Source: Myxococcota bacterium (GTDB lineage: Bacteria; Myxococcota_A; SURF-8). Taken from it: a DNA stretch of 64,000 bases. Positions within the stretch are counted from its first letter, which is position 1. The number at the start of each line of letters is the position of its first letter. The translations under genes and the position numbers were made by a program. The notes under the pieces are model-generated. The model was not told the origin of the DNA. It saw nothing but the letters and a program-made list of their open reading frames with translations, and made no database searches. Below, one piece after another: positions 4,157 through 50,949 of the stretch. The stretch is taken from NCBI GenBank assembly GCA_963674735.2, contig CAXXQS010000001.1, positions 1,120,001-1,184,000 of the forward strand, given 5' to 3'.

Positions 4157-4204
4157 AACCTACCGATCAAAGCATAATCGAAAATCGGATGAACCCGCGC
4201 ATCA

Positions 4205-33506: not shown

Positions 33507-33569
33507 TTGACAAACGTTCGTTTAATCGTATACTCGAAAAATATAAACGATCGTTTTAATCGGTCGTAT
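33507..33569 (+). promoter_or_regulatory. Sigma70 promoter overlapped by repeated palindromic operators
   Basis: TTGACA-N16-TATACT (33507-33534); AAACGTTCGTTT (33512-33523), perfect AAACGATCGTTT (33545-33556) and degenerate AATCGGTCGTAT (33558-33569). Confidence 0.75.
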
Positions 33570-33585
33570 GATTGTGGAGGTCGCA

Positions 33586-35079: not shown

Positions 35080-35103
35080 TCGATTGTTGAAACAGGAGTT
35101 GAT

Positions 35104-35757
35104 ATGTCGTCTCATACGGATGATCACAAATTGGAACCGCGTCAGCGCATCATCGAAGCGGCCACCCGCTTGTTTGCGCGAAAAGGCTATTCCGCAACCA
35201 GCATGAGAGAGTTGGCTCAGGAAGCGGACGTGAATTTGGCCATGATGAATTACTACTATGGGTCCAAACAAGGGATTCTGGAGTTCATTATGGAGCAATT
35301 TTTCAGCGGCTATACGAACATGGCCAAAGAAGCTTTCCATTCGGAAGGAGCGATCGAGGAAAAGCTCGAACGATTTGTCCATATGATTGTGATGTTTTTC
35401 AAAGAAAATCGGGATACGGTTCGGGTCGCCATGATGGAATTCCCGGTAGACATCCCCGAAATCGCCGAGTTCAAAGCGACGTTCATCCGACGCCTGATCG
35501 CCGAGATCGGGATGGTTGAAGTCCTCGTGGAAAACGGTGTAACCATCCGGCCGGACATCATCGGACCGGCCATCATTTCAAGCATCGGCTCTCATTTCCT
35601 GTTGCGACCCGTGATCGAACGGGTGTTCGAGCAGAACTATGACGATGACTTCTATGAGCAATACGCCAAGGATCTTTCGCGATTTATTATCAACGGTTTG
35701 CTTGGGAGAATGACGCTTTCTTCGGAAAAACGTACCGAGAATGAGGTGAAAAAATGA
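35104..35757 (+). CDS. TetR/AcrR transcriptional regulator
   Basis: RIIEAA..LFA.KGY.ATSMRELA.EA.VN.AM..YYYGSK helix-turn-helix. Confidence 0.95.
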   Translation: MSSHTDDHKLEPRQRIIEAATRLFARKGYSATSMRELAQEADVNLAMMNYYYGSKQGILEFIMEQFFSGYTNMAKEAFHSEGAIEEKLERFVHMIVMFFKENRDTVRVAMMEFPVDIPEIAEFKATFIRRLIAEIGMVEVLVENGVTIRPDIIGPAIISSIGSHFLLRPVIERVFEQNYDDDFYEQYAKDLSRFIINGLLGRMTLSSEKRTENEVKK

Positions 35758-38060
35758 GCGGTCGACTTTCGGAAATCGTAGTTCGTTATCCGTGGATGTT
35801 TATTCTGCTATTTGTTGGGATCAGCGTCTTTTTCGGCTTCCAACTGCCGAAGGCGGAAGTCGATCCGGATGTTAAAAACCAGCTCCCGGCGGATTATCCG
35901 GCGCGTCTCCATATCGATACTCTGGAAGACATGTTCGGAGGTTCCGAAATGGTGATGCTGGTCATCACCGCCGACGATGTCCTGGCCGCCGATACCTTGA
36001 AGCGGGTCAAGCAGATCAGCAAAAAGATCGATCGACTGAAGCTGGTAGACCGCACGCTGAGTTTGTTCGAGTTGAAGGATATTCGCGGGGAAGGCGGCGA
36101 AATGCTGGTGGATCCCGCGGTCAAGCGCATTCCGAAAACCGACCAGGCGCGGGAGAAGCTGCGAGCCCAGATCATGGATAATGACCTCGTTTATGGAAAC
36201 GTTGTCTCCACCGACTGGAAGGCGACGGCCGTAATCGGTCTTCTGAAAGACGGGACGTCGGACACCGAAGTCATCGGGCTGACGCGGCAAATCATTGCCG
36301 ACACGCCCGGGGCCGAGCCGGTTTACATTGCCGGTATGCCTTATGTGCGCGTCAACCTGAATAAGGATATCAAGGGCGACTTGCGAAAGTTCCTCCCTGT
36401 CGGTTTGCTGATTATGCTGATATTTCTGTTTCTCGCGTTTCGTCAATTGCGCGGTGTGCTGTTACCGTTTCTCATGACCATTATGGCGGTTGTTGTGGCG
36501 ATGGGGTTGATTCCCTTGTTCGGCTGGAAAATCCAAATGGTGACCGTCATCCTGCCGGTTATTCTGATTGCGGTCGCGAATGATTACGGAATTCACCTCA
36601 TTGCCCGCTATCAGGAGGAAAATGTCCCCGGAAACACGTTGACCAAGCAAGATTTGGCCAAGCGCGTCGTGGATGCGCTGGGAAAACCGGTTCTGGCGGC
36701 CGGAATCACCACGATTGTCGGTTTGATGTGTTTGCTCACGCATATCATCACCCCGGCTCAGGAACTGGGTATTCTATCCTCGTTGGGAGTGGCCTTTGCC
36801 CTGTCGGGCAGCATCATGTTCATCCCGGCGATCCTGGCCGTGTTGCCCAAGGCGAAGCCTCTGAAAAACATGTCTCATGCCGGCATCGAATCCGGCGGGA
36901 CCAAGGTTTCGTTGTTGGAGCGCTTTCTCAAGAAAACCTCCCGAGCCGTCGTGGCGCATCCCAAGAAGATCATTGTCGGAACGCTTGTGTCGGTGGCGTT
37001 GGTCTCGACCGGCATCTGGCAGGTCGTGATCGATACCAATCCGGTAAATTATTATCCGCTCGATTCGCCGGTGTCCAAGGCATCCTTGCTGGCGGATAAA
37101 TACTTCGGCGGTTCGACCACCTTGAATATCACCGCCAAGGGCGACATGAAGGATCCGGTTGTGCTGAAACAGATCGATGCGTTGGAGCAACATCTGTTGT
37201 CGTTACCCAATGTCGATCAAACCAGCAGCCTGCCGAAAGTCATTCGGCGCATGAACAAGGTGATGAACGATAACAATAAAGCCTTCGACACCATTCCCGA
37301 GCAGCGCCGTACCGTGGCGGAGTATCTGCTGCTTTATTCCATGAGCGGCGATCCGGACGATTTCGACCGCATGGTGGATTTCAATTACGAAAACGCCCAA
37401 CTTACGGCGCGGATCAACAAAATCAGCACTCAGGAAATCGCCCAGGTCGTTGCGGAAACCGAACGCTATATCCAGGAAAACGGCGGACCCTTCCAGTTGA
37501 TTACGGGGTTTGCGGCCTTCTTCTCGGACATGATCGATGAAATTGTCAAAGGCCAGATGATCAGCCTGTTGCTATCGATCGTTCTGATTGCGTTGACGGT
37601 GATGATCCTCTTCCGTTCGGTCGTCGCCGGTTTGATGGCGTCGATCCCGCTAGGCTTGGCCATGCCGCTTTTGTTCGGCATCATGGGATACTTCCACGTC
37701 GAGTTGAATATCGCGACCGCGATGCTGTCCTCCATCATGATCGGGGTCGGCGTGGACTACACCATTCACTATCTCTGGCGCTATCGCGATGAACGTCGCG
37801 CCGGGCAGGAACCGGTAGCGGCCGTGACAACCACCCTGATGACCACCGGACGCGGCATTATCTTCAATGCCTTATCCGTTGTCATCGGATTCGCCGTGCT
37901 CATGGCGTCGAGCTTTCTTCCGATCCGTTTTTTCGGTATCCTGGTTGTCATCTCCGTCGGGGCTTGTCTGTTCGGTGCACTGGTTCTGCTTCCGGCGATC
38001 TGCCTGGTTTTTCGTCCGAAATACCTGGAACCTCTTGAAAACGTCGTTGAAAAAGGCTGA
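35754..38060 (+). CDS. MMPL/RND-superfamily transporter
   Basis: Two repeats with ANDYGIH and GVGVDYTIH motifs, about 12 TM segments and two periplasmic domains. Confidence 0.92.
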   Translation: MSGRLSEIVVRYPWMFILLFVGISVFFGFQLPKAEVDPDVKNQLPADYPARLHIDTLEDMFGGSEMVMLVITADDVLAADTLKRVKQISKKIDRLKLVDRTLSLFELKDIRGEGGEMLVDPAVKRIPKTDQAREKLRAQIMDNDLVYGNVVSTDWKATAVIGLLKDGTSDTEVIGLTRQIIADTPGAEPVYIAGMPYVRVNLNKDIKGDLRKFLPVGLLIMLIFLFLAFRQLRGVLLPFLMTIMAVVVAMGLIPLFGWKIQMVTVILPVILIAVANDYGIHLIARYQEENVPGNTLTKQDLAKRVVDALGKPVLAAGITTIVGLMCLLTHIITPAQELGILSSLGVAFALSGSIMFIPAILAVLPKAKPLKNMSHAGIESGGTKVSLLERFLKKTSRAVVAHPKKIIVGTLVSVALVSTGIWQVVIDTNPVNYYPLDSPVSKASLLADKYFGGSTTLNITAKGDMKDPVVLKQIDALEQHLLSLPNVDQTSSLPKVIRRMNKVMNDNNKAFDTIPEQRRTVAEYLLLYSMSGDPDDFDRMVDFNYENAQLTARINKISTQEIAQVVAETERYIQENGGPFQLITGFAAFFSDMIDEIVKGQMISLLLSIVLIALTVMILFRSVVAGLMASIPLGLAMPLLFGIMGYFHVELNIATAMLSSIMIGVGVDYTIHYLWRYRDERRAGQEPVAAVTTTLMTTGRGIIFNALSVVIGFAVLMASSFLPIRFFGILVVISVGACLFGALVLLPAICLVFRPKYLEPLENVVEKG

Positions 38061-38098
38061 AAGAATAGGGGATATTGGTATCCCGAAAGGAGGCGACT

Positions 38099-38944
38099 AT
38101 GTGGAAGATATACGTGAAATATGTTGTGGCTTTTGCCGTATTGGGAGTGGTGGCCTGGTATTGGCCGGTCTGTGCGCAGGCTCAGGCCACTAAAGCGACC
38201 CCGGTTGTGGACAAAGAACTTAGTGCCGATCAGATTATCGATAAAGCTCAGGAAAACCGTAAATTGGACGGCGCGGAGAGCCTCCAGACGCTCACGATTT
38301 ACAACGAGAAAGGCGATAAGCGGGTTCGGCGTATGGCGGGCGTTTCAAAACTTTATGACAACGGCGATACCGAAAAACGCCTGATGCGCTTTACCCATCC
38401 GGCCGATGTGAAGGGAACCGGTCTTTTAACCTACGATTACGAGAAGAAAGATGACGATATCTGGCTGTTTTTACCGTCGTTGCGCAAGACGCGCCGTATC
38501 GTGTCGAGCGAAAAGTCCAAAAGCTTCATGGGATCGGAATTCAGTTATGCCGACATGACGCCTCCGCCGGTTGAGGATTTCGTTCACAAAAAGCAGAAAG
38601 TGGAAACCGTTGACGGTGTGGTTTGTTGGGTTGTGGAGTCGACGGCGAGAAGTGAGGATATCGCCGAAGAAAACGGCTATCTCAAGCGTGTGAGTTGGAT
38701 CGGACAGGCTGATTTCGTCGTTCGAAAAGCGGTCTACAACGATTTGGATGGTGAATTGCTGAAAGTCTTGACGACGAAAAACATCAAAGAAATCGATACC
38801 AAACGGCATCGTTTCCGGCCGCTTTACATGGAAATGAACAACAAACAAAACGGGCGAAAATCGGTATTCGAAACCAATCAGATCGAAATCCAGGAAGGGG
38901 TGAAAGACGATTATTTCACTACCCGTTATCTGGAACGACAGTAG
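38099..38944 (+). CDS. LolA-like periplasmic protein (outer-membrane lipoprotein-sorting family)
   Basis: F..PADVKGTGLL, WLFLPSLRKTRRI, SFMGSEFSY.D and FTTRYL motifs. AAGGAGG RBS. Confidence 0.88.
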   Translation: MWKIYVKYVVAFAVLGVVAWYWPVCAQAQATKATPVVDKELSADQIIDKAQENRKLDGAESLQTLTIYNEKGDKRVRRMAGVSKLYDNGDTEKRLMRFTHPADVKGTGLLTYDYEKKDDDIWLFLPSLRKTRRIVSSEKSKSFMGSEFSYADMTPPPVEDFVHKKQKVETVDGVVCWVVESTARSEDIAEENGYLKRVSWIGQADFVVRKAVYNDLDGELLKVLTTKNIKEIDTKRHRFRPLYMEMNNKQNGRKSVFETNQIEIQEGVKDDYFTTRYLERQ

Positions 38945-38956
38945 CCACGATCTTCT

Positions 38957-38993
38957 AACCCGGCGAAATCCTTGCGGGGTTTCGTCGGGTTTT
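38957..38993 (+). terminator. Intrinsic terminator
   Basis: AACCCGGCGAAATCC-loop-GGGTTTCGTCGGGTT followed by TT. Confidence 0.75.
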
Positions 38994-39169
38994 GCATCCC
39001 AACGAATCCTGCTGCAAAGTCGAAATACTTCCTGAAAATTCCCTCCTATTTCCCTTTCAACACGGTTTTAAGTTGTCGATAAATGCCTAAAAAGCCTGTG
39101 AATACAGGTGGATATCGCGAGGACGGCTAGGGTGGACATAATCATTCGTTTGCCTGTTTCATTTTAATA

Positions 39170-39224
39170 TTGACAGCCGGGAAACGGTACCGTAAGATCT
39201 GAAAACTAACTGGGCGGTCGGTTA
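39170..39224 (+). promoter_or_regulatory. Sigma70 promoter and TetR-type operator of the GRE operon
   Basis: TTGACA-N17-TAAGAT (39170-39198) and imperfect palindrome TAACTG-GGCGGT-CGGTTA (39207-39224) just before the GTG start. Confidence 0.7.
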
Positions 39225-39228
39225 AATT

Positions 39229-39843
39229 GTGAGCGAGGTTCAGGTGACAGCCAAAGAAAAAATTATCGAAGCGGCGGACCATCTTTTCGGAAAATTGGGT
39301 TTCGATGCGGCTTCGACACGCGAAATAGCGGAGATGTCGGGTGTTAACAAAGCCCTGATCCATTACCATTTCAAAAACAAGGATGGGTTGCTGGAAGCCC
39401 TGCTGGATCGATATTATCAGAAGCTCGCGATGCTGATCGAGACGAGTTTCCTGGATGAGGGTGACCTGAAAAAGCGACTGCTGCACATGGTCGACATCTA
39501 CATGGATTTTCTCGAGCAGAATCGAAATTTCGGTCGAATCGTCCAGCGCGAGGCCGCCGGTGGGCAACACATGGACCGCATCGAGAAAAATATGGTGCCT
39601 CTTTTCGAGTTGGGAAGCCGCGTTTTGAAAGACTCTTTTCCGGCGGCGCAAAAAGGTGAACTCGCCGCCGAACAGATGATGCTCAGTGCCTACGGCGCCA
39701 TCATCATTCATTTCATCTATGGCGATATGTTGGGACGGCTGGTCAAAAGCGATCCCCGTTCCCCCAAAGTCTTTAAAGCCAGGAAAAAACACATTCATCG
39801 CTTGATAGGAATCATGCTCGATTCGATGGATGCCGAACCCTGA
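39229..39843 (+). CDS. TetR/AcrR transcriptional regulator
   Basis: KIIEAA..LF...GFDAASTREIAE.SGVNKALIHYHFKNK. Confidence 0.95.
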   Translation: MSEVQVTAKEKIIEAADHLFGKLGFDAASTREIAEMSGVNKALIHYHFKNKDGLLEALLDRYYQKLAMLIETSFLDEGDLKKRLLHMVDIYMDFLEQNRNFGRIVQREAAGGQHMDRIEKNMVPLFELGSRVLKDSFPAAQKGELAAEQMMLSAYGAIIIHFIYGDMLGRLVKSDPRSPKVFKARKKHIHRLIGIMLDSMDAEP

Positions 39844-39861
39844 AAACAAGCGAGGTGAGTC

Positions 39862-42459
39862 ATGGTATCACACGCCAATTCGCAGACTGTGGTCTCGGAA
39901 GCAAGCCGGATTCGGAATATCCGGCACCGTTGCCAGAGCGGCGATGCCATGATTTCCATCGAGCGCGCCCGTTACTACACGGAAAGCTGGGAAGCGACGG
40001 CCGGGCAGGGGCTGTCGAATGCAATGCGAGTCGCCATGGCGATGAAGCACGTTTATGCAAACATGACGCTCTACCTGGACCCGGATGATCGCATCGCAGG
40101 CAATTGGACCGAATATTTCCTCGGCATTCCGATCGATATCGAGCGGGGTGTGTTCAATCAGGTGTTGAAATCGGAAATCAAGAAGAGTTCGATGATCCGC
40201 TTTCGCCTGAAATCCATGGGCAAGGGCTTGATTTACATGTTGAGAAAGGGCGCATTACCGCGCTTTCTGAAGAACCAGCGAATCGTCAAGGCGGCGGGAA
40301 CGCAACCGCTCAACATGGATTTTAAAACCATGGGCGAACGCGAGATCAATCCGTATCAAATCGAGAAAGCCGATCGGGATGAACTGCTGACCCGTATTTT
40401 GCCGAAATGGGAGGGACGGACGCTGGTCGATCAACTCGAACGGGAGATGCATGAATCCGGACTTTATTCCAAGGATATGCACGACTTTGCGGTTGCGTTA
40501 CCCGGCAATACCTCGCGCCAGGTCATGATGCTTTCCACCTGCGCTACCATCGCCACTTATCAGGGCCATGTCATTCTGGACTTCGACCGGGTGCTTGAAG
40601 TGGGCCTGACAGGCATGCTGCAGGAGCTGCGTTCCAGGCGAAAAGACGCTACGTTGAGCGAGAGTCAGAAAGATTTTCTGGATTCCCAGCTTGTGTGCCT
40701 CGAAGGTGTGAGCTTGTTCTGCAAACGTCTGGCCGAGCGCATCGAGACCGAAATCGAACACGAATCCGACGACGGCAGGCGGCGCGAGTTGGAAACCATG
40801 TGTTCGATCTGCCGCAAGGTCCCCATGGAACCGGCGGGCTGTTTTCGCGAAGCCGTTCAATCACTGTGGAGCATCAAAACGGCGGTGGAGCTGGCGCATC
40901 CCGTCAACCTGCATTGCTTCGGGCGTCTCGATCAAAGTCTGTACCCTTACTATGCCAAAGACTTGGAGGTCGGAGCGATCACCGAGGATCAGGCCTTGTG
41001 GTTGCTCGAAGAACTGCTACTCAAGATTATGTCGCAGAACATTCGCCCCGAGTCGAACATCTTAGGTAACTTCTATCATCGATTTTTAGGTTCTTCTCCG
41101 GTCACCATCGGGGGAACCGCCTTGGATGGCACGGATCAAACCAACGAATTGACCTACCTGTTTGCACGGGCGGCCCATGAATCGCGGGCTATTACCAATG
41201 TCTCGGTGCGAGTCGGAAAGAACACACCACCCCAGCTTTTGACAACCCTCGCCGAATATCTGAAGAACGGAACCTCCAGTTTCTCGCTGTTTAACGACGA
41301 AATAAATATCGAAGCGATGCGCAAGCGTGGGTTCTCGGAAGAGGATGCCTGTAACTACGCCATCATGGGTTGTGTCGAAGCGACCTGCCCCGGTAAGACG
41401 GGAAGCATGAGCGCCAACGCCTTACAGTTGAACCGCTTGCTCGACATCACTCTGCGCAATGGCGATTCCGCCATTCTGGCGGGTCTGATTCGAAACGAAG
41501 GCTTGAAAACGGGTGTCGCCGACGACTTCGCCACCTTCGAGCAATTCCTCGCTGCCCTTTATCGGCAGGCGGACCACTTTATCAAGAAAATCGTCGACGG
41601 GTCGAACCTGCGTGACCGGGTCTTTGCCGAACATCTGCCCGCTCCCTACATCTCAGCTTTTATCGACGGCTGCCTGGACTCCGGAAAGGATGTCACGCAG
41701 GGTGGGGCGGTTTACGATCTGGCCGGGATTTCGATGATCAACTCCATCGCCAATTTCGTCGATTCCCTCTACACCATTCAAAACCTGGTTTTCGAGCGGA
41801 AAAAGATCACGCTTAGCCAATTGGTGAACGCACTCGACGAAAATTTTGTCGGCTACGAAGACATCCACGCGGACATCCTGAAGCTTTCCGGGAAATGGGG
41901 TAACGGCGATCCCAAGGTGGACAAACTGGCCTCGGAGGTCATGAAACAGTTGTTCTCCTATACCTACCGGCACCGCACCAGTCGCAACGGCCCCTTCACC
42001 GTCTACGTTATCAGCATGATCACTCACACGATCGATGGGCGACTGTCCATTGCCAGCCTGGATGGCCGCAAGGCCGCCGTACCTTACGCTGCCAGTTGCA
42101 ACCCCTACAATGTCGAACGAGGGGGTGTCACCGCGGCGTTACGATCCGTGGCGTCATTGCCCTTTGAAGACGTGATGGGGTGTGCGGTGAATATGAAGTT
42201 TCATCCAAGCGCCATCGGAGAGAAGCCCGAGACGCGCGACAAGTGGGCCGCGTTGATTCGCACTTATTTCGCGTTGGGCGGCTCACAGATGCAACCGTCC
42301 TGTGTTTCGACGGAAACGCTCAAGGCGGCGCAACAGTCACCGGACCAGTACCGCGATCTGATCATCAAGGTCGGGGGGTATAGCACTTATTTTGTGGATT
42401 TGGGATGCGAGATTCAGCAGGAAATCATCGAGCGTACCGAACATGCCGGTGCGGCATGA
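39862..42459 (+). CDS. Glycyl radical enzyme (PFL2/eliminase-like), substrate unknown
   Basis: ISIERARYYTES N-terminus, FGRLDQ.LYPYY, Cys loop MGCVE (C504), KWGNGD..VD, Gly loop LIIKVGGYSTYF (G839) and EII.RT end. Confidence 0.92.
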   Translation: MVSHANSQTVVSEASRIRNIRHRCQSGDAMISIERARYYTESWEATAGQGLSNAMRVAMAMKHVYANMTLYLDPDDRIAGNWTEYFLGIPIDIERGVFNQVLKSEIKKSSMIRFRLKSMGKGLIYMLRKGALPRFLKNQRIVKAAGTQPLNMDFKTMGEREINPYQIEKADRDELLTRILPKWEGRTLVDQLEREMHESGLYSKDMHDFAVALPGNTSRQVMMLSTCATIATYQGHVILDFDRVLEVGLTGMLQELRSRRKDATLSESQKDFLDSQLVCLEGVSLFCKRLAERIETEIEHESDDGRRRELETMCSICRKVPMEPAGCFREAVQSLWSIKTAVELAHPVNLHCFGRLDQSLYPYYAKDLEVGAITEDQALWLLEELLLKIMSQNIRPESNILGNFYHRFLGSSPVTIGGTALDGTDQTNELTYLFARAAHESRAITNVSVRVGKNTPPQLLTTLAEYLKNGTSSFSLFNDEINIEAMRKRGFSEEDACNYAIMGCVEATCPGKTGSMSANALQLNRLLDITLRNGDSAILAGLIRNEGLKTGVADDFATFEQFLAALYRQADHFIKKIVDGSNLRDRVFAEHLPAPYISAFIDGCLDSGKDVTQGGAVYDLAGISMINSIANFVDSLYTIQNLVFERKKITLSQLVNALDENFVGYEDIHADILKLSGKWGNGDPKVDKLASEVMKQLFSYTYRHRTSRNGPFTVYVISMITHTIDGRLSIASLDGRKAAVPYAASCNPYNVERGGVTAALRSVASLPFEDVMGCAVNMKFHPSAIGEKPETRDKWAALIRTYFALGGSQMQPSCVSTETLKAAQQSPDQYRDLIIKVGGYSTYFVDLGCEIQQEIIERTEHAGAA

Positions 42460-43364
42460 GCCGTGGACGGATCTTCGATATTCAGACCAATGCCGTCTAC
42501 GATGGTCCCGGTATCCGCACGGTTGTGTTTTTCAAAGGTTGTCCGCTTCGTTGCGCGTGGTGCCACAACCCGGAATCCCAGTCGGCTCCGATTTCGATTG
42601 CGTGGATACGGAGCAAGTGCCGCCAATGCGGAATCTGCCTTTCGGTCTGCGACCAAGGTGCACGGCTTTGTCTGGGCGATTCGATAATTCGAAATGAGGC
42701 TCTTTGTACGTGCTGCGGGAACTGTGTGGAAAGTTGTCCCTCAGGTGCCGTGGCGTGGATTGGCGAAGAGATCGACGCAGAAGAACTGGCGAAAAAAGCC
42801 TTGCTCGACCGTCCTTTTTTCGAGCATTCCGGCGGCGGTGTGACGTTGAGCGGGGGCGAGCCGACGCAGCAACCCGAGTTCATGTTCGATCTCGTTCGGC
42901 GTATCAAGAAGGCGGGCGTCCACGTTGCCCTTGAAACCTGCGGATATTTTAGCGATGAGATGATGACGCATATTCTCGAAGAGGTGGACCTTGTTTTGTT
43001 CGATTTCAAGCATATCGACGATGGCAAACATCGGGAAGCGGTGGGAGTCGGTAATGCGCCTATCATTGAGAACATGATACGGGCGGTTCATTGGCCGGGC
43101 GATAAGATCCGGTTCAGGATCCCGGTGATTCCCGGGTTCAACGCCGATTCGGAAAGTTCGACGGCCATGGCGCGTTTCCTGGACGAAATCGGATATCGCG
43201 GCCAGGTCGATCTGATGGCCTATCACAACTATGCCGGATCGAAGTACGACAAAATCGGGAGAGCGGCCGACTTCGTCGATTTGGGATCGTTGAGTGAACT
43301 GCAAAAATCGGTTGTCGAGGAGAGTTTCAGGAATTGGAATCTTATTCCAGTTTGGGGAGGTTAG
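42456..43364 (+). CDS. Glycyl-radical activating enzyme (radical SAM with 2x[4Fe-4S] insert)
   Basis: DGPGIRTVVFFKGCPLRCAWCHNPE, CRQCGICLSVC, CTCCGNCVESCP and GGVTLSGGEP motifs. ATGA overlap with the GRE stop. Confidence 0.95.
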   Translation: MSRGRIFDIQTNAVYDGPGIRTVVFFKGCPLRCAWCHNPESQSAPISIAWIRSKCRQCGICLSVCDQGARLCLGDSIIRNEALCTCCGNCVESCPSGAVAWIGEEIDAEELAKKALLDRPFFEHSGGGVTLSGGEPTQQPEFMFDLVRRIKKAGVHVALETCGYFSDEMMTHILEEVDLVLFDFKHIDDGKHREAVGVGNAPIIENMIRAVHWPGDKIRFRIPVIPGFNADSESSTAMARFLDEIGYRGQVDLMAYHNYAGSKYDKIGRAADFVDLGSLSELQKSVVEESFRNWNLIPVWGG

Positions 43365-43365
43365 G

Positions 43366-45201
43366 ATGGGGGAGATGGAATCGATGGATCGAAAACGCAC
43401 GGTCCTTGTCATCGGTGCGGACGGTTTGCTCGGGAGTCATTTGGTTCGAGCCTTGCAGGTTCAACAGTATCGCGTTCGTGTTTTCAAACAGCCTGGCAGT
43501 TCGTCGCCGACATTAGACGAACTCGACTTGGAAATCTTCGAGGGGGATCTGCTTGACGAGGGGGATTCTCTCGCGGAGGCCATGCAGGGGTGTGATACCG
43601 TTTTTCACTTGGCTGCGATCACCGATCTGTGGGCGGATGAGAAAAAGGTTTGGCAAGTCAACTACGATGGCACGCGAAACGTGCTCGATGCCTGTCTGGC
43701 GGCCCATATCAGGCGCTTGATTTTCACCGGTTCCGCAAGCTCGTTTCAGTTCGGTTCGATGGATCGTCCGGGGGATGAGCGCAATTCATTTGCGCCCGAA
43801 TATCGCGGTATCGCGTATATGGAGTCGAAACACAAGGCCATGGAGTTGGTCTTGGACTATGCCGAGTCCAAAGGCTTGGATGCGCTGGTGGTTGCACCGA
43901 CCTTCATGTTGGGCGATCTCGACTGGCGGCCGAGTTCGGGCGAATTGATTCGCCAGTTTATCGCGCGCGGCATGCGGGTCACCTCGCCGGGAGGACGCAA
44001 CTTCGCTCACGTAAGCGATGTCGCCCAGGCGATGGTCAATGCGATCGACAAAGGCAAGAGCGGCGAATGCTACATTCTGGGCGGAGAAAATCTGCGCTAT
44101 CTGGATTTCTTTACCAAGGTGGCCGCCATCGCCGGGTGTGAACCGCCAAAGCGCGTGATCCCGAAAGTCGCCTTGCAGATTGCGGGTCTGATTGGATCGC
44201 TCATCGGAAAACTGACCGGCCGCCGGGTCGCGTTAAATCGCACGTTGGCCAAGCTATCCTTGATGGGTACCTATTACAGCTCGGAAAAGGCGATCCGCGA
44301 ACTGGATATGCCGCAAACGCCGATTGAAAGCGGTATCGAAAAAACGATTAAAAGCCTGTTGAGTTACCGACATATATACGCGGAGGAATCCGCAGCTTTT
44401 AAAGGGAAGGTGGCGCTCATTACCGGTGCGTCGCGCGGGGTCGGGTTTTCGGTCGCACGTGAACTGGTCAAGCGCGGCGCGAAGGTCGTTCTGAGTGCCC
44501 GAGGTGAAAGGCGTCTGCTCGATTCCAGAGATAAGCTGGAACGTCTCGGAGGTGACGTGGCGGCCGTAACCGGTGATGTGGGCAAGTGGGACGATGCCCG
44601 GCGCATGGTTGAGGTCGCCCACGACCGATTCGGCAAAATCGATATTCTGGTGAATAACGCCGGGATTTCGATGCGGGGGAAATTTCACGAGCTTTCGCCC
44701 GAAGTCTGTACCGACACCATCACCACCAACCTGCTGGGGAGCGTTTATCTAACGAAAGCCGCTATCGACGACATCCGCGAGACGAAAGGCCATGTCGTTT
44801 TCGTCTCCAGCATCGCCGGTTTGTTCGGGCTGCCGGGAGCCTCGACGTATTGCGCATCCAAGGCCGCCTTGACGGGCTTGAGCGAATCGCTGCGTCTGGA
44901 ACTGATTCCGGAGGGGGTTCACTCGGGGGTGGTCTATCTCGGCTTCACCGAACACGATCCCGAAAAAACGATTTTGGCTGCGGACGGAACCGGGGTGCGT
45001 CCCGACCGCCCCGCGCACCACACGCAAGTCTTCGCTGCCTCACTGATCGTGGATATGCTGGTGAAACGGAAACGTCGCATCATCATGACGCCTGCCGGAG
45101 TGTTGGGTGGGTTGGTTTACCGGTTTTCTCCCGGTTTCGTCGAGTGGGCGATTCTAAAGGCACAGTCCATGCAAATTGGGACTTTTAAAAAATTTTCATA
45201 A
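43366..45201 (+). CDS. Fusion of an extended SDR (HpnA/DFR/3beta-HSD-like) and a classical SDR
   Basis: N-domain GADGLLG, FHLAA, YMESK, GECYILGGEN; C-domain TGASRGVG, LVNNAG, VSS, YCASK; one uninterrupted frame. Confidence 0.9.
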   Translation: MGEMESMDRKRTVLVIGADGLLGSHLVRALQVQQYRVRVFKQPGSSSPTLDELDLEIFEGDLLDEGDSLAEAMQGCDTVFHLAAITDLWADEKKVWQVNYDGTRNVLDACLAAHIRRLIFTGSASSFQFGSMDRPGDERNSFAPEYRGIAYMESKHKAMELVLDYAESKGLDALVVAPTFMLGDLDWRPSSGELIRQFIARGMRVTSPGGRNFAHVSDVAQAMVNAIDKGKSGECYILGGENLRYLDFFTKVAAIAGCEPPKRVIPKVALQIAGLIGSLIGKLTGRRVALNRTLAKLSLMGTYYSSEKAIRELDMPQTPIESGIEKTIKSLLSYRHIYAEESAAFKGKVALITGASRGVGFSVARELVKRGAKVVLSARGERRLLDSRDKLERLGGDVAAVTGDVGKWDDARRMVEVAHDRFGKIDILVNNAGISMRGKFHELSPEVCTDTITTNLLGSVYLTKAAIDDIRETKGHVVFVSSIAGLFGLPGASTYCASKAALTGLSESLRLELIPEGVHSGVVYLGFTEHDPEKTILAADGTGVRPDRPAHHTQVFAASLIVDMLVKRKRRIIMTPAGVLGGLVYRFSPGFVEWAILKAQSMQIGTFKKFS

Positions 45202-45222
45202 CGTTCAACACAGGAGAGCAAG

Positions 45223-45987
45223 ATGGGATTTGTCAAAACGAAGGAAGAATTGGACAAGTATTTCGCGCTAGGCGTGCGCAAATTCAGTGGCGCTCAAATG
45301 ATGGGGGTGATGTTCTCGGCACCGGCCGACGTGACCGCCGCGCTGTTACCGGCACCCTTGGAGCAGGCGGATATGCCGGGCGGTTTGATCTTCATCGCGC
45401 AATACCCGGAAACCAACCTCGGTGAAGGTTACCACGAGGCGGCGTTGTTCATCCGCTGCAAATACAAGGGAGAAGCGGGGGCGTATTGCCTCTCCATGCC
45501 CATCGACAACGAAGCCCGCATGCATAACGGGCGCGACATCTTCGGCTTCCCCAAGAAAATGGCCAACATTCAGTTCGAGAAAAACGGCAACAAATTGAAA
45601 GGGTCTGTTGAGCGCAACGGTATTCGGTTTATCGAGATCGATATCGAACTTTCAGGTTCCCTCCCCGAACTGCCGCCGACCGGTCCCACCTATCTGTTCA
45701 AGGCCATGCCGAAAATCGACTTGACGCCGGGATTCGACGGCCCGGTTTTTCTGGTGCAGCAGAAAACCGACGTCAAGCTGCAAAGCCTTGAAATCGGAAC
45801 CGCCGATGTGAAGTTGACTCCTTCGGAGTCCGATCCGTGGGCGGAAATCGAAGGATTGGCGCCCATGATGGCGTTCTATATCGTCAGCGATAACACCATG
45901 ATGCCTGGAAAGATTCTGGAAGAAGTGAACCCGGAAAGTTTCCTTCCCCATTACTACAAGATGACGGATTTCTCGGCCGGGAAGTAA
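45223..45987 (+). CDS. Acetoacetate decarboxylase-like (ADC superfamily) protein
   Basis: LLPAPL, Y.EAAL, GRDIFGFPKK (Schiff-base Lys region) and S..DPW motifs. Confidence 0.88.
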   Translation: MGFVKTKEELDKYFALGVRKFSGAQMMGVMFSAPADVTAALLPAPLEQADMPGGLIFIAQYPETNLGEGYHEAALFIRCKYKGEAGAYCLSMPIDNEARMHNGRDIFGFPKKMANIQFEKNGNKLKGSVERNGIRFIEIDIELSGSLPELPPTGPTYLFKAMPKIDLTPGFDGPVFLVQQKTDVKLQSLEIGTADVKLTPSESDPWAEIEGLAPMMAFYIVSDNTMMPGKILEEVNPESFLPHYYKMTDFSAGK

Positions 45988-45999
45988 AGGAGGACGACC

Positions 46000-47202
46000 A
46001 TGATCGATTTCAGTCTTTCGGAAACCCAGGATCAATTCGTCAAAACCGCGCGGGATTTCGGTAAAAATGTCTTGCAACCGGCGGAAATCGAATTGGATAA
46101 GATGGCCGATGCCGAGGCGGCATTTCATTCGGAAACGTTTCGAAACCTGCTGGCGCAAGCCTTCGAACTCGGTTTTCACAAAATGGGGATGAAAGAGGAG
46201 TTCGGGGGGCTGGGGCTGGATGCCAATACCACCGGCCTGATCTGGGAGGAGCTGGCCCGTTACGGCGCAGGATTTACCGCCTCCCTGATGGCGGGCTCCG
46301 TCGTTCCGGCCCTGATCGCCTTTCTGGCCCCCGGCAACAAGGAGTTGCTCGACCGCTACGTCACGCCGTATTGCGAAGACACGACCGGGCAGACCATCAC
46401 CGCCTGGGGGAGCAGCGAGCCGGATGTGGGATCGGACGGAAAGAACTACTACACGGAGTCGGTGAAGCACAAAACATCCGCGACAAAAACGGAAACCGGA
46501 TTCGTCATCAACGGGGCGAAATCGAATTTCATCAGCAACGGTTCCATCGCCAAGGATTACATCGTCTTCGCCTGCCTGCAACCCGAACTCGGCATTCGCG
46601 GGTCGGGGGCGTTCATCGTGCCCGGTGATGCGCCCGGCATGACGCGCGGGAAGACGGTCGATCGCATCGGCATGCGCGCCTTGAATCAAGCTCCCATCTA
46701 TTTCGACGATCTGGAGATCCCGGAAAGTCACCTGATCTTTCCTCCCGGCGACGCCTATCCGATGCTGCATCATTCCATCATGACGGTCGGCAATCTCGGG
46801 ACCGGCTACCTGGCTTTGGGATTGATGCGGGCGGCCTACGAGGAAGCCTTGGCTTATTCCAAGGAGCGAGTCCAGTGGGGGAGGCCAATCAAAGAGCATC
46901 AGCTTGTCACCAAAAAGCTGTTCGATATCCAGGCCTCGATCTCGGCGTGTCGAGCCTTGCTTTGGCGGGGAAGTTGGCACTGTAAAAACAATTTTCCCGG
47001 CGATCTCGTAACCAGCGTCAGCGCGAAAGTCTTAACCACCGAGCAGGCGGTCAAGCACACCGCTGAAATGGTGCAGGTTTTGGGCGGCTACGGCATAACC
47101 AAAGACTACAAACTCGAAAAATACATGCGTGATGCGCCCCTGTTGCAGATCATGGACGGCACCAACGATACCTTGATGATGGAAGCGGCAACGCTGCTTT
47201 AA
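46000..47202 (+). CDS. Acyl-CoA dehydrogenase family protein with atypical motifs
   Basis: FGGLG, SEPDVGSD, INGAK.NFISNG, YSKERVQWGRPI.EHQ.V, QVLGGYG and EKYMRDA...QIMDGTN motifs. Confidence 0.92.
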   Translation: MIDFSLSETQDQFVKTARDFGKNVLQPAEIELDKMADAEAAFHSETFRNLLAQAFELGFHKMGMKEEFGGLGLDANTTGLIWEELARYGAGFTASLMAGSVVPALIAFLAPGNKELLDRYVTPYCEDTTGQTITAWGSSEPDVGSDGKNYYTESVKHKTSATKTETGFVINGAKSNFISNGSIAKDYIVFACLQPELGIRGSGAFIVPGDAPGMTRGKTVDRIGMRALNQAPIYFDDLEIPESHLIFPPGDAYPMLHHSIMTVGNLGTGYLALGLMRAAYEEALAYSKERVQWGRPIKEHQLVTKKLFDIQASISACRALLWRGSWHCKNNFPGDLVTSVSAKVLTTEQAVKHTAEMVQVLGGYGITKDYKLEKYMRDAPLLQIMDGTNDTLMMEAATLL

Positions 47203-47210
47203 GGAGCAAA

Positions 47211-48053
47211 ATGGAGCACGCGTTTATATACGGGATCATGCTCGGCATGCTGGGCGCCTTGATGATGAATATCGGAAAGGGCGTTCAGAAACAGTACGTG
47301 CACATCTTTCTGGCGGGCCGGGGCTTTTTGCGAGCGGAGCATCGGAGAACCTTGGTTCTCTGGTCGCTCGGCTTTCTGGTGACCGCCAGTTCTATTTTTC
47401 CCTATACGCTGGCCTTGAAGATGACAAAGTCTCCCGCCTGTATTTCGGCCATGACCGGCATCGGTTTGACCGGCCTCGGACTCTATGCCGTTTGGGTGAT
47501 CGGCGAAAAGCTGAGCCGTCGCGACTTGTTCGGAATGGGGCTGATTGTCGTCGGCACCTCGCTTTTGGGTTATCTGGGGGGCGATCAAGCGGCGAACGTT
47601 CGGCAGTTGGTCGATACGAGGCTGGCCTTGGCAGGCTTTTCCATCGTCGTGGTCGCGGCCGGTATCTGTCTGTTATCGAAACGCCTCCCGCGTATTCATG
47701 GTATCGCCTTCGGTTCCGCGGCCGGAATGGCCATCGGACTCTCCATCTTTCTGGGCGATGCGGCTTTGGTCAAGGCCGGGGGCTCGCTGACCGGGCAATT
47801 GTCCAATCCCTATCCCTACATCGCGCTGGCGTCCGCCGCTTCGGCGACCGTTATCACGCAGGTCGGGTTTTTGAAAAGCCGCGCCATCGAGGTGGTATCG
47901 GCAGTCAACTCGGCGGCGATTCTCACTCCTTTGGTCTTGGAACTGATCGTCTACGGCTCGATTCCCGACTTTAAAAGACTGCTTCTGATAGCGTTGATCC
48001 TGACGGGTGTGATAGTCTTGTCCGGCGGAGCCGCCTCCCGAATTCCTTCCTGA
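47211..48053 (+). CDS. Polytopic membrane protein (DMT/NIPA-like)
   Basis: About 9 hydrophobic segments; NIGKGVQK, GEKLS..D..G..LIV.G and Q.GF...RA..V patterns. Confidence 0.65.
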   Translation: MEHAFIYGIMLGMLGALMMNIGKGVQKQYVHIFLAGRGFLRAEHRRTLVLWSLGFLVTASSIFPYTLALKMTKSPACISAMTGIGLTGLGLYAVWVIGEKLSRRDLFGMGLIVVGTSLLGYLGGDQAANVRQLVDTRLALAGFSIVVVAAGICLLSKRLPRIHGIAFGSAAGMAIGLSIFLGDAALVKAGGSLTGQLSNPYPYIALASAASATVITQVGFLKSRAIEVVSAVNSAAILTPLVLELIVYGSIPDFKRLLLIALILTGVIVLSGGAASRIPS

Positions 48054-48076
48054 GAAGTCCGATGGAGTGTGCTTGA

Positions 48077-48829
48077 ATGATAATCGGTTTTCATCTTGAA
48101 TTTATGGCGCTGATGGGCATCGTCGCGCTGGGCTGTCTGGTGGGGGCCGCGACGGGCTTCGGGAGCTCGACGATCATCATGACCCTTGCGGTGCTTCTGT
48201 TTCCGATCAAGGCGATCGTGGCGGTGATCATTCCGCTGAACGTCGTGATCTGCCTTTACTTGGTTCTAAAATATCGCGACGGCATCGACGCGCGCCTATT
48301 GTTTTTGCGCATCGTTCCCCTCACCGTGCTCGGCATGCCCCTGGGCTTGCTTATCTTCGAACTGGCCGACACCAACCGCATGAAGCCATTCTTTGGTGCA
48401 TTTGTGATTCTGCTCTCGATATTCGAGCTGTGGCGCAGCAGACAAAACACGGATGGCCCGCGACCGTCACCCAAGCTTGCCTCGTCTGCTTTTTGGCTTG
48501 TTACCGGCGGCGTCATTCAGGGTTTGTGGGTAACCGGCGGACCCCTGGTGGCGTACTGGGCCAGCCGAGCCATCGACAACAAGCACGAGTTTCGCAGCAC
48601 CTTAAGCGCGCTTTGGTTGATTCTGAACGTGATTCTGCTGGTCAGCCACGGTGTGACGGGAACCATCGACTTGGGAACGGCCAAGGTCAGCCTGGCGCTC
48701 ATACCTGCCTTGATGCTGGGGATTGCGCTGGGCGAGCGTATCCATCATTATCTGCCTGAACGTTCCTTCAAAATGTTGGTGTATATCGTTCTGCTCTTTT
48801 CCGGTACGGCGATTCTGCTCAGTGATTGA
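48077..48829 (+). CDS. Sulfite exporter TauE/SafE family protein
   Basis: GATGFG-type N-terminus, G.PLG, GG...G....GGP, FRSTL and G..LG.R.....PE..F motifs. Confidence 0.85.
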   Translation: MIIGFHLEFMALMGIVALGCLVGAATGFGSSTIIMTLAVLLFPIKAIVAVIIPLNVVICLYLVLKYRDGIDARLLFLRIVPLTVLGMPLGLLIFELADTNRMKPFFGAFVILLSIFELWRSRQNTDGPRPSPKLASSAFWLVTGGVIQGLWVTGGPLVAYWASRAIDNKHEFRSTLSALWLILNVILLVSHGVTGTIDLGTAKVSLALIPALMLGIALGERIHHYLPERSFKMLVYIVLLFSGTAILLSD

Positions 48830-48899
48830 AGAATTCTGCCGATAGCTATCAATCCGATCCGTTCTAAAGTCTGTCGGGCGCGAGCCGGTAGCCCAAACG

Positions 48900-48929
48900 A
48901 AAAACGGCCGGGACTCATCGCCCCGGCCG
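48900..48929 (-). terminator. Intrinsic terminator of the peroxiredoxin gene
   Basis: Minus strand CGGCCGGG-N9-CCCGGCCG followed by T5. Confidence 0.8.
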
Positions 48930-48969
48930 AAATCTGAATGAGGCCGACGCGCTGCGCCGACCGATCTAT

Positions 48970-49689
48970 TTATTCAGTCGGTTTCCAAACCTTCCACACT
49001 TTGCCAACCAACTCGGGGCCGACCTTCAATACCGGTTGTCCGGGCTCCCAACCGGCCGGGCAAACCTCGGCACCGGCGGTTGCACGCACATGCTGGAACG
49101 CCTGAAGCTGGCGAATCGACTCATCGACCTTGCGGCCGACAGGCGGAGTCAGGATTTCGATGGCCTGCACCACGCCGTCCGGATCGATGATGAAGCGACC
49201 GCGCACGTCCACGCCTCCGGCTTCATCGTAAATGCCGTAGACGGAGCCGATACGGCCACCCGCATCCGAGAGCATAGGGAAGGGGAATCCGCCCTTCACC
49301 ATCTTGCTCAGTTCATCTTCGTTCCAGATTTTGTGCACGAAACGGCTGTCCGTGCTGCACGCGAGAACTTGTACGCCCAGTTTGTTGAAGACTTCGGCCT
49401 TGCCGGCGACCGCCGACAGTTCCGTGGGTCAAACAAAGGTGAAGTCACCGGGGTAAAAGCATAGGAATACCCATTTCCCCTTGTAATCCGACAGTTTGAC
49501 TGTTTTGAAGCCACCCTGATGAAAGGCCGATGCCTCAAAATCAGGTGCTTCCTTGCCTACCATTACTTGCATGGCAGTGCCTCCCTTTTCATTAGATGTA
49601 TCATCCGTTTTCATCTCGTCCGGTTTCGCTGCGGCCGAAATCGGCCCCTTGGCCGGTTGGACACAGCCTTCCGGCTGCTTGCTGGCCAT
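48970..49689 (-). CDS. prxU: Selenocysteine-containing peroxiredoxin (AhpC/PrxU type); in-frame UGA at 49431-49429
   Basis: FYPGDFTFV-[TGA]-PTELSAVA continues in frame into FVHKIW...[15 protein letters not shown]. The UGA sits at the peroxidatic Cys position. Confidence 0.93.
49402..49417 (-). promoter_or_regulatory. Bacterial SECIS-like stem-loop
   Basis: GUCGGC-GGUC-GCCGGC hairpin starting 12 nt 3' of the UGA, with an apical loop beginning GG. Confidence 0.75.
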
Positions 49690-50332: not shown

Positions 50333-50949
50333 GATTGTGCGGCCTCCACGACAGTCGAAATCATGCTTTCCGCCTCGTCGATATCCTTTGCATACCAATA
50401 CTGCCGGTTGATCAGCATCACGTAAAACAAGGCGCCCACCAGCAGCCCGGCAACCGTGGTGCTGAACGCGATGATCAAATCGTTCGACATCACCGTCAGG
50501 TTGCCTTGCGAAATGTTCATCAGCGCCGGACCCATGGGAATCAGCGTGCCCATCAGACCGAGAACCGGCCCGATGCGCAAGCCGATGCGCAGGCGCGACC
50601 AGCGGCGGGCCGCTTCGAATTCCAACTCGTGCAGCAGGCGTTCGTAGTGGACCGTCCGCAAGGGTTGTGTTGGTGACCGTAGCGAAACAGCCCGTGACTT
50701 GACCAACTCCGGCGCGTGGGGGCCGGTCAGAAGGTCGAGCAACTCCTTTTCATCCACCTTTTCGCCAAGCGCGAAGGCCGAGACGCAGGATTGCCAGTCG
50801 CCATGTCGGTGTCGTCGTTCGAACCATTCCCGCAGGAACGCGCCGATTTCGAACAAGGCCCAGATCAAAGCCAATAAAACCCCCAGCACGACGGGAGCCT
50901 TGAGCGCAACCGTAATGCTGTACAGGATGGCGATGGCGAGATCAATCAT
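50329..50949 (-). CDS. MotA/TolQ/ExbB family protein (HmuU-like)
   Basis: RIGPVLGLMGTLIPMGPAL, IAFSTTVAGL and WYAKD motifs. Confidence 0.9.
   Translation of the reverse strand: MIDLAIAILYSITVALKAPVVLGVLLALIWALFEIGAFLREWFERRHRHGDWQSCVSAFALGEKVDEKELLDLLTGPHAPELVKSRAVSLRSPTQPLRTVHYERLLHELEFEAARRWSRLRIGLRIGPVLGLMGTLIPMGPALMNISQGNLTVMSNDLIIAFSTTVAGLLVGALFYVMLINRQYWYAKDIDEAESMISTVVEAAQS

Follow-up and report, generated by a model that had tools for sequence, protein, structure and literature searches.

Glycyl radical enzymes (GREs) of the eliminase type set the anaerobic use of choline, hydroxyproline, sulfonates, diols and anhydro-sugars. With every substrate newly assigned to them, a further part of anaerobic metabolism has come to light. 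The characterised eliminases and isomerases named in the available portion of a 2026 review comprise glycerol dehydratase (GD), 1,2-propanediol dehydratase (PD), HpfG, HypD, HpyG, HpzG, CutC, IslA/IseG, HpsG, HplG, YbiW and PflD, and the same portion also describes whole GRE clades that lack functional validation. Here we describe an operon built around another member of this superfamily, found in a stretch of 64,000 nucleotides (the window) from a Myxococcota bacterium (assembly GCA_963674735.2, contig CAXXQS010000001.1, positions 1,120,001 to 1,184,000). Its gene context is matched by none of the eliminases and isomerases named in that portion of the review. The operon is a real, conserved and uncharacterised system, and is best filed as a GRE 1,2-eliminase with a new partner set. 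With a probability of roughly 65%, we read it as a self-contained, horizontally mobile, TetR-controlled operon in which a new glycyl-radical 1,2-eliminase and its activase form the core together with an obligatory two-domain short-chain dehydrogenase/reductase (SDR).

The open reading frame (ORF) listing and the Pfam and NCBIfam scans resolve window positions 39170-48829 into a single, tightly packed plus-strand operon of eight genes, in the order TetR regulator, GRE, GRE activase, two-domain SDR, acetoacetate decarboxylase (ADC)-fold protein, acyl-CoA dehydrogenase (ACAD)-fold flavoprotein, DMT-type permease and TauE permease. The TetR-family regulator (204 amino acids (aa), 39229..39843; PF00440 58.3 bits, TetR_C_29 weak) is separated by 18 nt from the GRE gene (865 aa, 39862..42459; PF02901 461.5 bits with a cut-off of 24.3, PF01228 76.2 bits with a cut-off of 22.2). 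The ORF of the activase opens at 42405, and translation probably begins at the ATG at 42456, start codon and GRE stop codon sharing the sequence ATGA; the gene ends at 43364 (TIGR02494 314 bits, cut-off 174.35) and encodes Radical_SAM and Fer4 domains in the Pfam scan, the latter indicating extra ferredoxin-type clusters. The SDR (611-635 aa, 43366..45201) has an ORF opening at 43294 and a likely start at M25 (43366), 1 nt past the activase stop, and carries an Epimerase/3Beta_HSD domain followed by adh_short. Further downstream, with gaps of 21, 12, 8 and 23 nt, lie the ADC-fold protein (254 aa, 45223..45987; PF06314 156 bits), the ACAD-fold flavoprotein (400 aa, 46000..47202; PF02771, PF02770 and PF00441 all above cut-off), a DMT-superfamily (EamA/NIPA-like) permease (280 aa, 47211..48053; no Pfam match, recognised by the Atlas feature search with EamA/NIPA clusters at 0.95) and a TauE/SafE-family anion permease (250 aa, 48077..48829; PF01925 100.6 bits), for which export of sulfite or another anion is putative. 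A GC-rich, terminator-like hairpin past the last gene (48905..48929, listed on the minus strand; 10 pairs, 9 of them GC) possibly marks the end of the operon, and its role is uncertain because the T-run lies on the minus-strand side. A preliminary description of the window had reported eight genes of these families, joined by overlaps or gaps of at most about 25 nt, and no pyrroline-5-carboxylate reductase. Our data agree with it on each of these points (the ATGA overlap, gaps of 1-23 nt and no such reductase among the cluster genes in the Pfam scan); it had also listed as absent small Bss/Hpd-type subunits, for which no dedicated search was made.

Chance falls far short of explaining the arrangement, given its recurrence at dozens of loci spread over several phyla. 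We collected 13 orthologous loci from species-representative genomes and 80 from metagenomes, and these 93 loci fell into 77 non-redundant groups at 95% nucleotide identity of the GRE gene, 26 of which have at least 6 kb on either side (full loci). One locus with a 28%-identical GRE of a different family (L014) was excluded from all counts, and another (L067) was left out of alignment A3 owing to an internal stop. Partners were counted by tblastn with the window proteins (E ≤ 1e-8 and coverage of at least 0.5, or 0.3 for the SDR, with identity of at least 38% also applied for some). An extended SDR domain and a classical SDR domain accompany the GRE in all 26 full loci, and the two are fused in 16. 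ADC is present in 21 of 26, as is ACAD, which always occurs together with ADC; the activase was counted in 15. A TetR orthologue (45-56% identity) lies beside the GRE in 12 full loci and a divergent TetR directly upstream of it in 4 more, giving 16 of 26 with a TetR. The DMT permease (9/26), the TauE permease (6/26, at times on the opposite strand) and a URO-D/MtaA-like protein (3/26) are optional. Conserved SDR, ADC and ACAD neighbours were what the preliminary description had named as support for its proposal, and on this count the loci bear it out.

Gene order and strand differ among the loci, for instance ADC-ACAD-TetR-GRE-AE-SDR-SDR (AE, activase) or arrangements with divergent SDRs, and the gene set stays constant; this shuffling of a retained set argues for functional linkage. 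De novo clustering of 1223 further neighbour ORFs from the 77 non-redundant loci gave no additional family in more than five loci, the minor ones being a divergent TetR, an unknown 210-aa protein, a C45/AAT protein and a GalT-like protein. Genes for a CoA ligase or transferase, an enoyl-CoA hydratase, a thiolase or a shared transporter do not recur across the same 77 loci. About 90 flanking ORFs searched against Pfam were unrelated (glycosidases, haem synthesis, restriction systems, kinases), with no transporter, CoA ligase, hydratase or thiolase theme among them. Since the flanks are unrelated from locus to locus, the cluster behaves as a small mobile cassette. The distribution is patchy as well: among 41 phylum relatives searched, window genome included, four possess a GRE orthologue, and one locus (L005, from genome G004) comes from a Myxococcota bacterium metagenome-assembled genome (MAG) of the same family as the window genome. 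By record labels the GRE family occurs in MAGs of Myxococcota, Phycisphaerae, Hydrogenedentota, Gemmatimonadota, Nitrospirales, Actinomycetota and Desulfobacterales.

The GRE itself falls below every NCBIfam equivalog cut-off. Its best match is HpsG (NF048011, 418 bits against a cut-off of 1000), followed by HypD (NF043068, 399.4 against 1100), HpfG (386 against 1000) and CutC (TIGR04394, 370.5 against 1050), and on the subfamily model that tests for glycerol and 1,2-propanediol dehydratases (TIGR01774) it reaches 452.8 bits with a cut-off of 678.2. Identity to solved GREs is at most 27%; the best matches in a sequence search of the PDB are CutC, propanediol dehydratase and HpsG (E 1e-96 to 1e-103). 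An AlphaFold2 (AF2) model built from 31 family members (pLDDT 82.8, pTM 0.88) finds the 1,2-propanediol dehydratases 9rcp, 9rco and 5i2g and the glycerol dehydratase 1r8w as top Foldseek matches (E ~1e-53, TM 0.80-0.82, 26-27% identity), with other eliminases close behind.

The family is compact (55-70% identity) and was found solely in MAGs and metagenomes from several phyla. The best 120 relatives in a 90%-clustered protein collection are 60-69% identical and bear generic names only ('pyruvate formate lyase family protein', 'formate C-acetyltransferase'), and those relatives in this collection that carry an organism name are all MAGs. In a 50%-identity library 1814 proteins match the GRE at E ≤ 1e-30. 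Two full-length proteins stand out among them, one representative at 57% identity and a single full-length sister at 43% (P0129, 859 aa, aligned to GRE residues 15-862); the other full-length proteins reach at most 39%, and higher identities among the remainder belong to fragments of 174-658 residues. Together with the model scores and the distance to solved GREs, this places the enzyme in an uncharacterised clade, as had been suggested earlier. Our literature search, which covered subscription journals only in small part, returned no account of this GRE family, of a GRE with SDR, ADC or ACAD neighbours, of a lipid-cleaving GRE or of an ADC-like/ACAD pair.

The conserved residues point to elimination. 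Both the Cys loop (G-C504-V-E506) and the glycyl loop (K-V-G-G839-Y-S) are invariant in the 31 family members. According to the available portion of the 2026 review, the CxE motif is kept in all GRE eliminases and isomerases, its Glu being bonded to the substrate hydroxyl, and C504-V-E506 conforms to this pattern. His236, also invariant across the family, aligns with His166 of propanediol dehydratase (5i2a), whose equivalent in GD (His164) protonates the leaving hydroxyl according to the same source. In the proposed chemistry, the activase would generate the radical on Gly839, Cys504 would take a hydrogen from the carbinol carbon, Glu506 would accept the hydroxyl proton, and His236 would protonate the vicinal oxygen leaving group, which may be OH (a dehydratase) or OR (a beta-hydroxy-ether lyase), leaving an aldehyde or ketone as product. 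The ether-lyase variant is possible because the CxE machinery of the isomerases YbiW and PflD, which cleave the ring-ether C-O bond of anhydro-sugar phosphates (as described in that portion of the review), expels an alkoxide. These two share about 25% identity with the operon GRE, which differs from them in having neither aldolase partners nor an evident phosphate-sugar context.

The resemblance to the B12-independent GD and PD (1r8w, 5i2a/5i2g, 9rco) is broad, covering the fold, the CxE and glycyl loops, a His on the first strand of the barrel, and a dedicated activase with additional Fe-S clusters. One may therefore ask whether the enzyme is an ordinary glycerol or 1,2-propanediol dehydratase with odd neighbours, as its top structural matches and the retained His and CxE would allow. 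The identity of 26-27% and the TIGR01774 score speak against this, and so does Ser517 of the GRE, which occupies the position of PD Asp452 in 5i2a (Asp447 of GD is presumably the equivalent residue). The family moreover has invariant motifs of its own: C352-F-G-R, where other GREs have S-x-G-R, N-F-Y-H-R407-F-L-G-S-S-P, and S-M-I-T-H-T-I-D. It also has a basic insertion of ~45 residues (about 105-148) that the AF2 model folds into helices 108-128 and 132-144, preceded by a short helix at 100-106. This insertion is found in all 31 members, with a net charge of +4 to +11 (median +7), and is absent from four other GREs of the same genome. We considered an amphipathic membrane helix for it and dropped the idea, the helical hydrophobic moment being ordinary (0.1-0.4). 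The partners likewise differ from those of GD and PD: the operon has SDR, ADC-fold and ACAD-fold proteins under TetR control, and no DhaT-, PduP- or PduQ-type partner. A search of the entire genome (5.26 Mb, 94% complete) detected no microcompartment shell domain (PF00936), and the control search was positive in E. coli and Synechococcus; the absence of shells had likewise been noted before. Taken together, an ordinary GD or PD seems very unlikely.

The preliminary description had proposed loss of water, an amine or sulfite, and of these the general elimination chemistry fits the CxE loop and the conserved His. An amine lyase acting on a vicinal amino alcohol (for example carnitine, 1-amino-2-propanol or a sphingoid base) would split off ammonia or an amine and hand the product to the SDRs and the ADC-fold protein. 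The CxE machinery for this is present, and an ADC fold next to a 3-hydroxyacyl-type SDR would suit beta-hydroxy or beta-keto carbonyls. In CutC, Asp216 binds the trimethylammonium group. The G-Y-D216 segment of CutC, however, aligns with G-H-V237 of the operon GRE, placing Val237 at the Asp position, which speaks against loss of a quaternary amine, and Thr502 of CutC aligns with Ser517. The conserved His suits a leaving group that is an oxygen and must be protonated. Genes for aminotransferases, BCCT proteins or other amine handling do not recur in the 77 loci, and the Arg by which the carboxylate of beta-keto acids is bound is missing from the ADC-fold protein. The niche itself is open because CutC is so far the sole C-N-cleaving GRE eliminase in the available portion of the 2026 review. 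On balance we regard C-N cleavage as quite unlikely.

A C-S lyase or sulfonated-diol dehydratase, with TauE exporting sulfite or a sulfonate product, would make sense of the TauE permease in the operon and in 6 of 26 full loci, of HpsG as best NCBIfam match and of the match between the ACAD-fold protein and a 3-sulfinopropanoyl-CoA desulfinase model (157 bits). The HpsG score is, however, far below its cut-off, and HypD, HpfG and CutC score about equally. As described in the available portion of the review, the sulfonate anchor of C-S lyases consists of two Arg and one Gln; the corresponding Arg/Gln/Arg positions are Ile230, Gln234 and Tyr715 in the operon GRE, so that Gln234 alone is kept. 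TauE is missing in 20 of the 26 full loci, no sulfite reductase or Xsc gene is linked, and the linked thiamine diphosphate (ThDP) enzyme is of the acetolactate synthase (ALS)/2-hydroxyacyl-CoA lyase (HACL) type. Loss of sulfite is thus very unlikely, and that part of the earlier proposal is not supported. CutC and IslA/IseG/HpsG share the superfamily and the CxE mechanism with the operon GRE, which does not keep their substrate anchors. Because the CxE loop and the dehydratase His are kept and the CutC Asp and two of the three sulfonate anchors are gone, a new C-O-cleaving 1,2-eliminase is the best reading. Judged from the alignments, the enzyme would expel an oxygen leaving group, hydroxide or alkoxide, and is probably not an amine or sulfonate lyase of a known type.

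The partner most closely tied to this predicted eliminase is the two-domain SDR. Its N-terminal domain is an extended SDR with intact GxxGxxG and YxxxK motifs, and its highest score is on the HpnA model (TIGR03466, 244.4 bits, below the cut-off of 367.65), with a further match to 3Beta_HSD; Pfam scans and neighbour clustering revealed no hopanoid biosynthesis genes in the cluster, and the domain does not qualify as HpnA. Its nearest solved structure over residues 30-349 is PDB 3wj7 (E 9e-45), which we take to be Gox2253 of Gluconobacter. A preprint, in the part available, terms Gox2253 an aldehyde reductase and names it as the PDB entry nearest to a steroid ene-reductase. At the C-terminus follows a classical SDR domain with intact TGxxxGxG, NNAG and S...YxxxK motifs, nearest over residues 366-542 to the (3R)-hydroxyacyl-CoA dehydrogenase of 2et6 (E 7e-37) and also close to FabG enzymes; the protein scores 214.1 on NF004825, just under the cut-off of 215. 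Fatty acyl-CoA reductases are known that combine an extended with a classical SDR. The PRK07201-type two-domain SDRs have the same domain order as the operon protein, but the C-terminal half of the latter scores only 152 bits on NF005539 (cut-off 549), and its N-terminal half matches HpnA- and 3beta-HSD-type models rather than the PRK07201 N-domain.

An extended-SDR paralogue (58% identity) is encoded divergently beside a second GRE of the same genome (834 aa, 34% identical to the operon GRE), which shows this SDR type to be a recurrent GRE partner and fits a role on the carbonyl product. Following elimination, the aldehyde-reductase-like extended domain and the ketoacyl/hydroxyacyl-type classical domain would reduce or oxidise that product. 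By analogy, the pairing of GRE and SDR resembles the dehydratase-plus-reductase pairs of glycerol, propanediol and 2,3-dihydroxypropane-1-sulfonate (DHPS) fermentation. The HpfG/HpfD route, which in its partly available description leads from DHPS through 3-sulfopropionaldehyde to 3-hydroxypropanesulfonate, follows the same logic of GRE dehydratase, aldehyde reductase and permease exit. The operon differs from this route in its low score on the HpfG model, in its fused double SDR as reductase and in its sulfonate anchors, which are not kept. Transport of substrate or product presumably falls to the optional DMT and TauE permeases.

A second module, present in about four-fifths of the loci, would combine an ADC-fold Schiff-base enzyme with an ACAD-fold flavoprotein that uses an Asp as base. 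Aligned against 3bh2, 3bgt and 3c8w, the ADC-fold protein retains F-P-K111-K112 (equivalent to Lys115 and Lys116 in 3bh2) as well as Glu76, and K111, at the position of the Schiff-base Lys, is invariant in 27 sequences. It shares these features and the fold with the acetoacetate decarboxylases of Clostridium and Chromobacterium (3bh2, 3bgt). In true ADC, Arg29 binds the carboxylate; the operon protein differs in having Ala24 at this position, which is not conserved, and Phe at that of Glu61, in scoring 61.8 on NF002614 (cut-off 150), and in always occurring with, and at times being fused to, an ACAD-fold partner. The loss of the Arg argues against simple beta-keto-acid decarboxylation. The ACAD-fold protein has the three-domain fold of short-chain acyl-CoA dehydrogenases and is nearest to butyryl-CoA dehydrogenase (1buc, E 3e-53). 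Glu367 of 1buc (Y-E-G-T) is the catalytic base, and relatives with an Asp base, such as nitroalkane oxidase, are known. In contrast to 1buc, the operon protein has Asp386 (M-D386-G-T) at this position, invariant in 28 of 28 sequences. The Asp base, together with the lack of a linked CoA-forming enzyme, argues against ordinary beta-oxidation, into which the preliminary description had the SDRs, the ADC-fold enzyme and the ACAD feeding the product; with no CoA ligase or transferase, hydratase or thiolase recurring, that step is unsupported.

The genes for the two proteins frequently abut or overlap. Four database proteins (P0122-P0125) are ADC-ACAD fusions with a Pro/Ala-rich linker of 20-32 residues, and in genome G053 the pair forms one 700-aa ORF (L116:9128-11230), the fusions spanning 674-700 aa. 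The pair is missing in 5 of the 26 full loci. G053 and G124 have it amid unrelated genes and lack a GRE orthologue, their best GRE matches being 36-37% identical; G268, conversely, has TetR-GRE-AE-SDR and no ADC match at E ≤ 1e-25. Since the pair and the GRE-SDR core each occur alone, ADC-ACAD is an independent module that is usually recruited.

Several points weigh against our reading of the operon as a TetR-controlled eliminase system with an obligatory SDR. The acid/base set of the GRE differs from that of GD and PD, given Ser517 at the Asp452 position. The activase adjoins the GRE in just 15 of the 26 full loci at the thresholds used. The reading gives no role to the ADC-fold and ACAD-fold proteins and allows the SDR to work in either direction, reduction or oxidation. 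Moreover, the active-site argument is one from sequence alignment alone, because the lowest-confidence parts of the model (GRE segments 216-219, 397-405 and 720-725) are the three most family-specific conserved segments; these may act as mobile gates. Finally, the family-wide invariance of Arg407 and the presence at some loci of permeases of the anion type could speak for a substrate that is small and anionic rather than hydrophobic. That the substrate is a hydrophobic or amphiphilic alcohol or diol is a reasonable guess but no more.

The preliminary description had gone further and envisaged a GRE acting on a functionalised lipid, such as a hopanoid polyol, a sphingoid base, a sulfonolipid or a steroid conjugate, followed by beta-oxidation; attack would fall on the polar head, and a glycerol ether may be added to the candidates. 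In a related version, a GRE docked to the membrane surface by its basic insertion would break a C-O (or C-N) bond in the head group; this we consider unlikely. Its candidate substrates would be alkylglycerols or glycerol ethers of the archaeal type, side chains of bacteriohopanepolyols, or sphingoid bases, and the SDR and ADC-ACAD would work up the lipid aldehyde. Some features do hint at a lipid: the extended SDR is nearest to 3wj7 and scores best on HpnA and 3Beta_HSD models, the classical SDR is similar to 3R-hydroxyacyl-CoA dehydrogenase, the positive charge of the insertion would allow it to rest on an anionic membrane, no transporter occurs at every locus, TetR control would suit a lipid or other hydrophobic compound, a DUF1302/TetR/MMPL/LolA-like cluster suggestive of hydrophobe transport lies directly upstream in the window genome only, and C45 Ntn-hydrolase and 2-hydroxyacyl-CoA-lyase-like genes occur at some loci. 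These hints are weak. The MMPL and LolA-like genes accompany the GRE at no other locus examined, the insertion has an ordinary hydrophobic moment, the DMT and TauE permeases, found in about one-third of loci, suit a soluble compound better, and the accessory genes are confined to few and related lineages. The same absence of CoA-forming and beta-oxidation genes, the Asp in place of the catalytic Glu and the missing Arg29 also count against the lipid model as a whole, which we judge rather unlikely. Of the pathway first proposed, the new clade, the conserved neighbours and the eliminase chemistry are supported, and the lipid substrate and beta-oxidation are unsupported.

Control by TetR is suggested by a site at the operon's own promoter. 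The sigma-70-like match TTGACA-17-TAAGAT (39170..39198, plus strand; a consensus match only) is the sole promoter-like site within 38800-49400, a region not enriched in such sites (1 against 5.6 expected). Directly after it lies a 20-bp palindromic operator-like site, CTAACTGGGCGGTCGGTTAA (39206..39225, no strand), a putative TetR site. A palindrome with the 20-bp consensus TTAACTGGGCGNCCGGTTAA recurs at the cluster promoter across phyla. Of 22 upstream regions with a canonical TetR (21 loci and the window), 18 have it at most ~150 nt from the TetR start; in the remaining four, TetR follows ACAD, and in three of these the palindrome precedes ADC, the first gene, the fourth contig beginning at ADC. 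Sites matching at least 13 of 16 half-site positions were found in 23 of the 77 non-redundant loci (985 kb searched). In 20 of these 23 it occupies the cluster promoter, 30-150 nt ahead of the cluster's first gene; the other three sites, and two extra ones inside genes, look like chance matches. L135 likewise has the palindrome before its TetR. In the 5.26-Mb window genome four sites match at least 14 of 16 positions, one of them at the operon, and by our own estimate the other three are about what chance would give. The TetR_N helix-turn-helix and a palindrome at the gene's own promoter, conserved in 20 other loci, suggest that the site is probably bound by the cluster TetR. A PDB search with the TetR matched the DNA-binding domain only and gave no hint of a ligand.

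A dedicated TetR with an operator at the promoter is typical of inducible catabolism or detoxification, and this bears on whether the operon might instead serve biosynthesis or tailoring of an endogenous lipid or secondary metabolite, for example by deoxygenation of a polyol. The kinship of the extended SDR with the hopanoid-associated HpnA family, the exporter-type MMPL next door in the window genome and the lack of a universal importer are in keeping with such a role. The cluster is, however, a small cassette that moves between phyla with unrelated flanks, and no synthase, carrier-protein or transferase gene is linked to it; together with the mode of control, these features make tailoring very improbable.

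The clade is tractable, being compact and common in sediment and digester metagenomes, in the form of a small cassette with its own repressor and 20-bp operator; with these in hand, the TetR may be used to fish for the inducer. Two further puzzles for enzymology come with the operon. One is the obligatory double SDR, a partner to more than one GRE family; the other is the pair of ADC-fold and ACAD-fold proteins, at times fused, each of which lacks a canonical catalytic or binding residue. If the substrate were a lipid head group after all, the enzyme would provide a first oxygen-independent entry for anaerobes into such lipids and would bear on the anoxic decay of membrane-lipid biomarkers.

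Several neighbouring and related genes deserve mention. The co-directional cluster directly upstream of the operon (window 33568-38944), which looks like a hydrophobe transport system, consists of a DUF1302-like outer-membrane protein (33568-35079), a second TetR (35104-35757), an MMPL/HAE3 RND transporter (35754-38060) and a LolA-like/DUF1329-like protein (38075-38944), all in the direction of the operon; this four-gene set was found beside the GRE cluster at no other locus examined. Downstream, on the minus strand (window 50942-54993), CobN/Mg-chelatase homology is split over the overlapping ORFs 52564-54993 and 50942-52681, for which a frameshift, an assembly error and a genuine split are all possible.

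Four more PFL-like GREs are encoded in the window genome, at C2:122842-125871 (-), C3:103608-106112 (+), C1:1284672-1287188 (+) and C1:880001-883336 (+). All have the C-x-E loop and the His and score below every NCBIfam equivalog cut-off; one is an activase-GRE fusion of 1111 aa, and another, of 1009 aa, has an N-terminal extension of ~200 residues. The locus of the second GRE (834 aa), divergent from its HpnA-like extended SDR (L133, window genome G000:C3:95063-107661), is flanked by a C45/AAT-domain protein (847 aa), a 413-aa protein, an ALS/2-hydroxyacyl-CoA-lyase-like ThDP enzyme, an MFS transporter and a DUF218 protein, with no activase adjoining the GRE. Among the orthologous loci, a C45 Ntn-hydrolase-like protein and an unknown 413-aa partner are present at L089, the L036 group, L034 and L028, and L031 has an ALS/2-hydroxyacyl-CoA-lyase-like ThDP enzyme and an MFS transporter; the same four accessory genes flank the second GRE-SDR pair of the window genome.

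A protein of 500-508 aa lies within the operon, before or after the GRE, at L001:8393-9919, L079:12599-14100 and seven other non-redundant loci. Its N-terminal domain is HMG-CoA_red_N-like and is joined to one that distantly resembles the URO-D/MtaA-CmuA methyltransferases. The L079 contig carries two GREs 3.6 kb apart (3885-6371 and 10001-12547), one of them 39% identical to the second GRE of the window genome and the other orthologous to the operon GRE, and a divergent ADC-like gene (39%) is located between the two.

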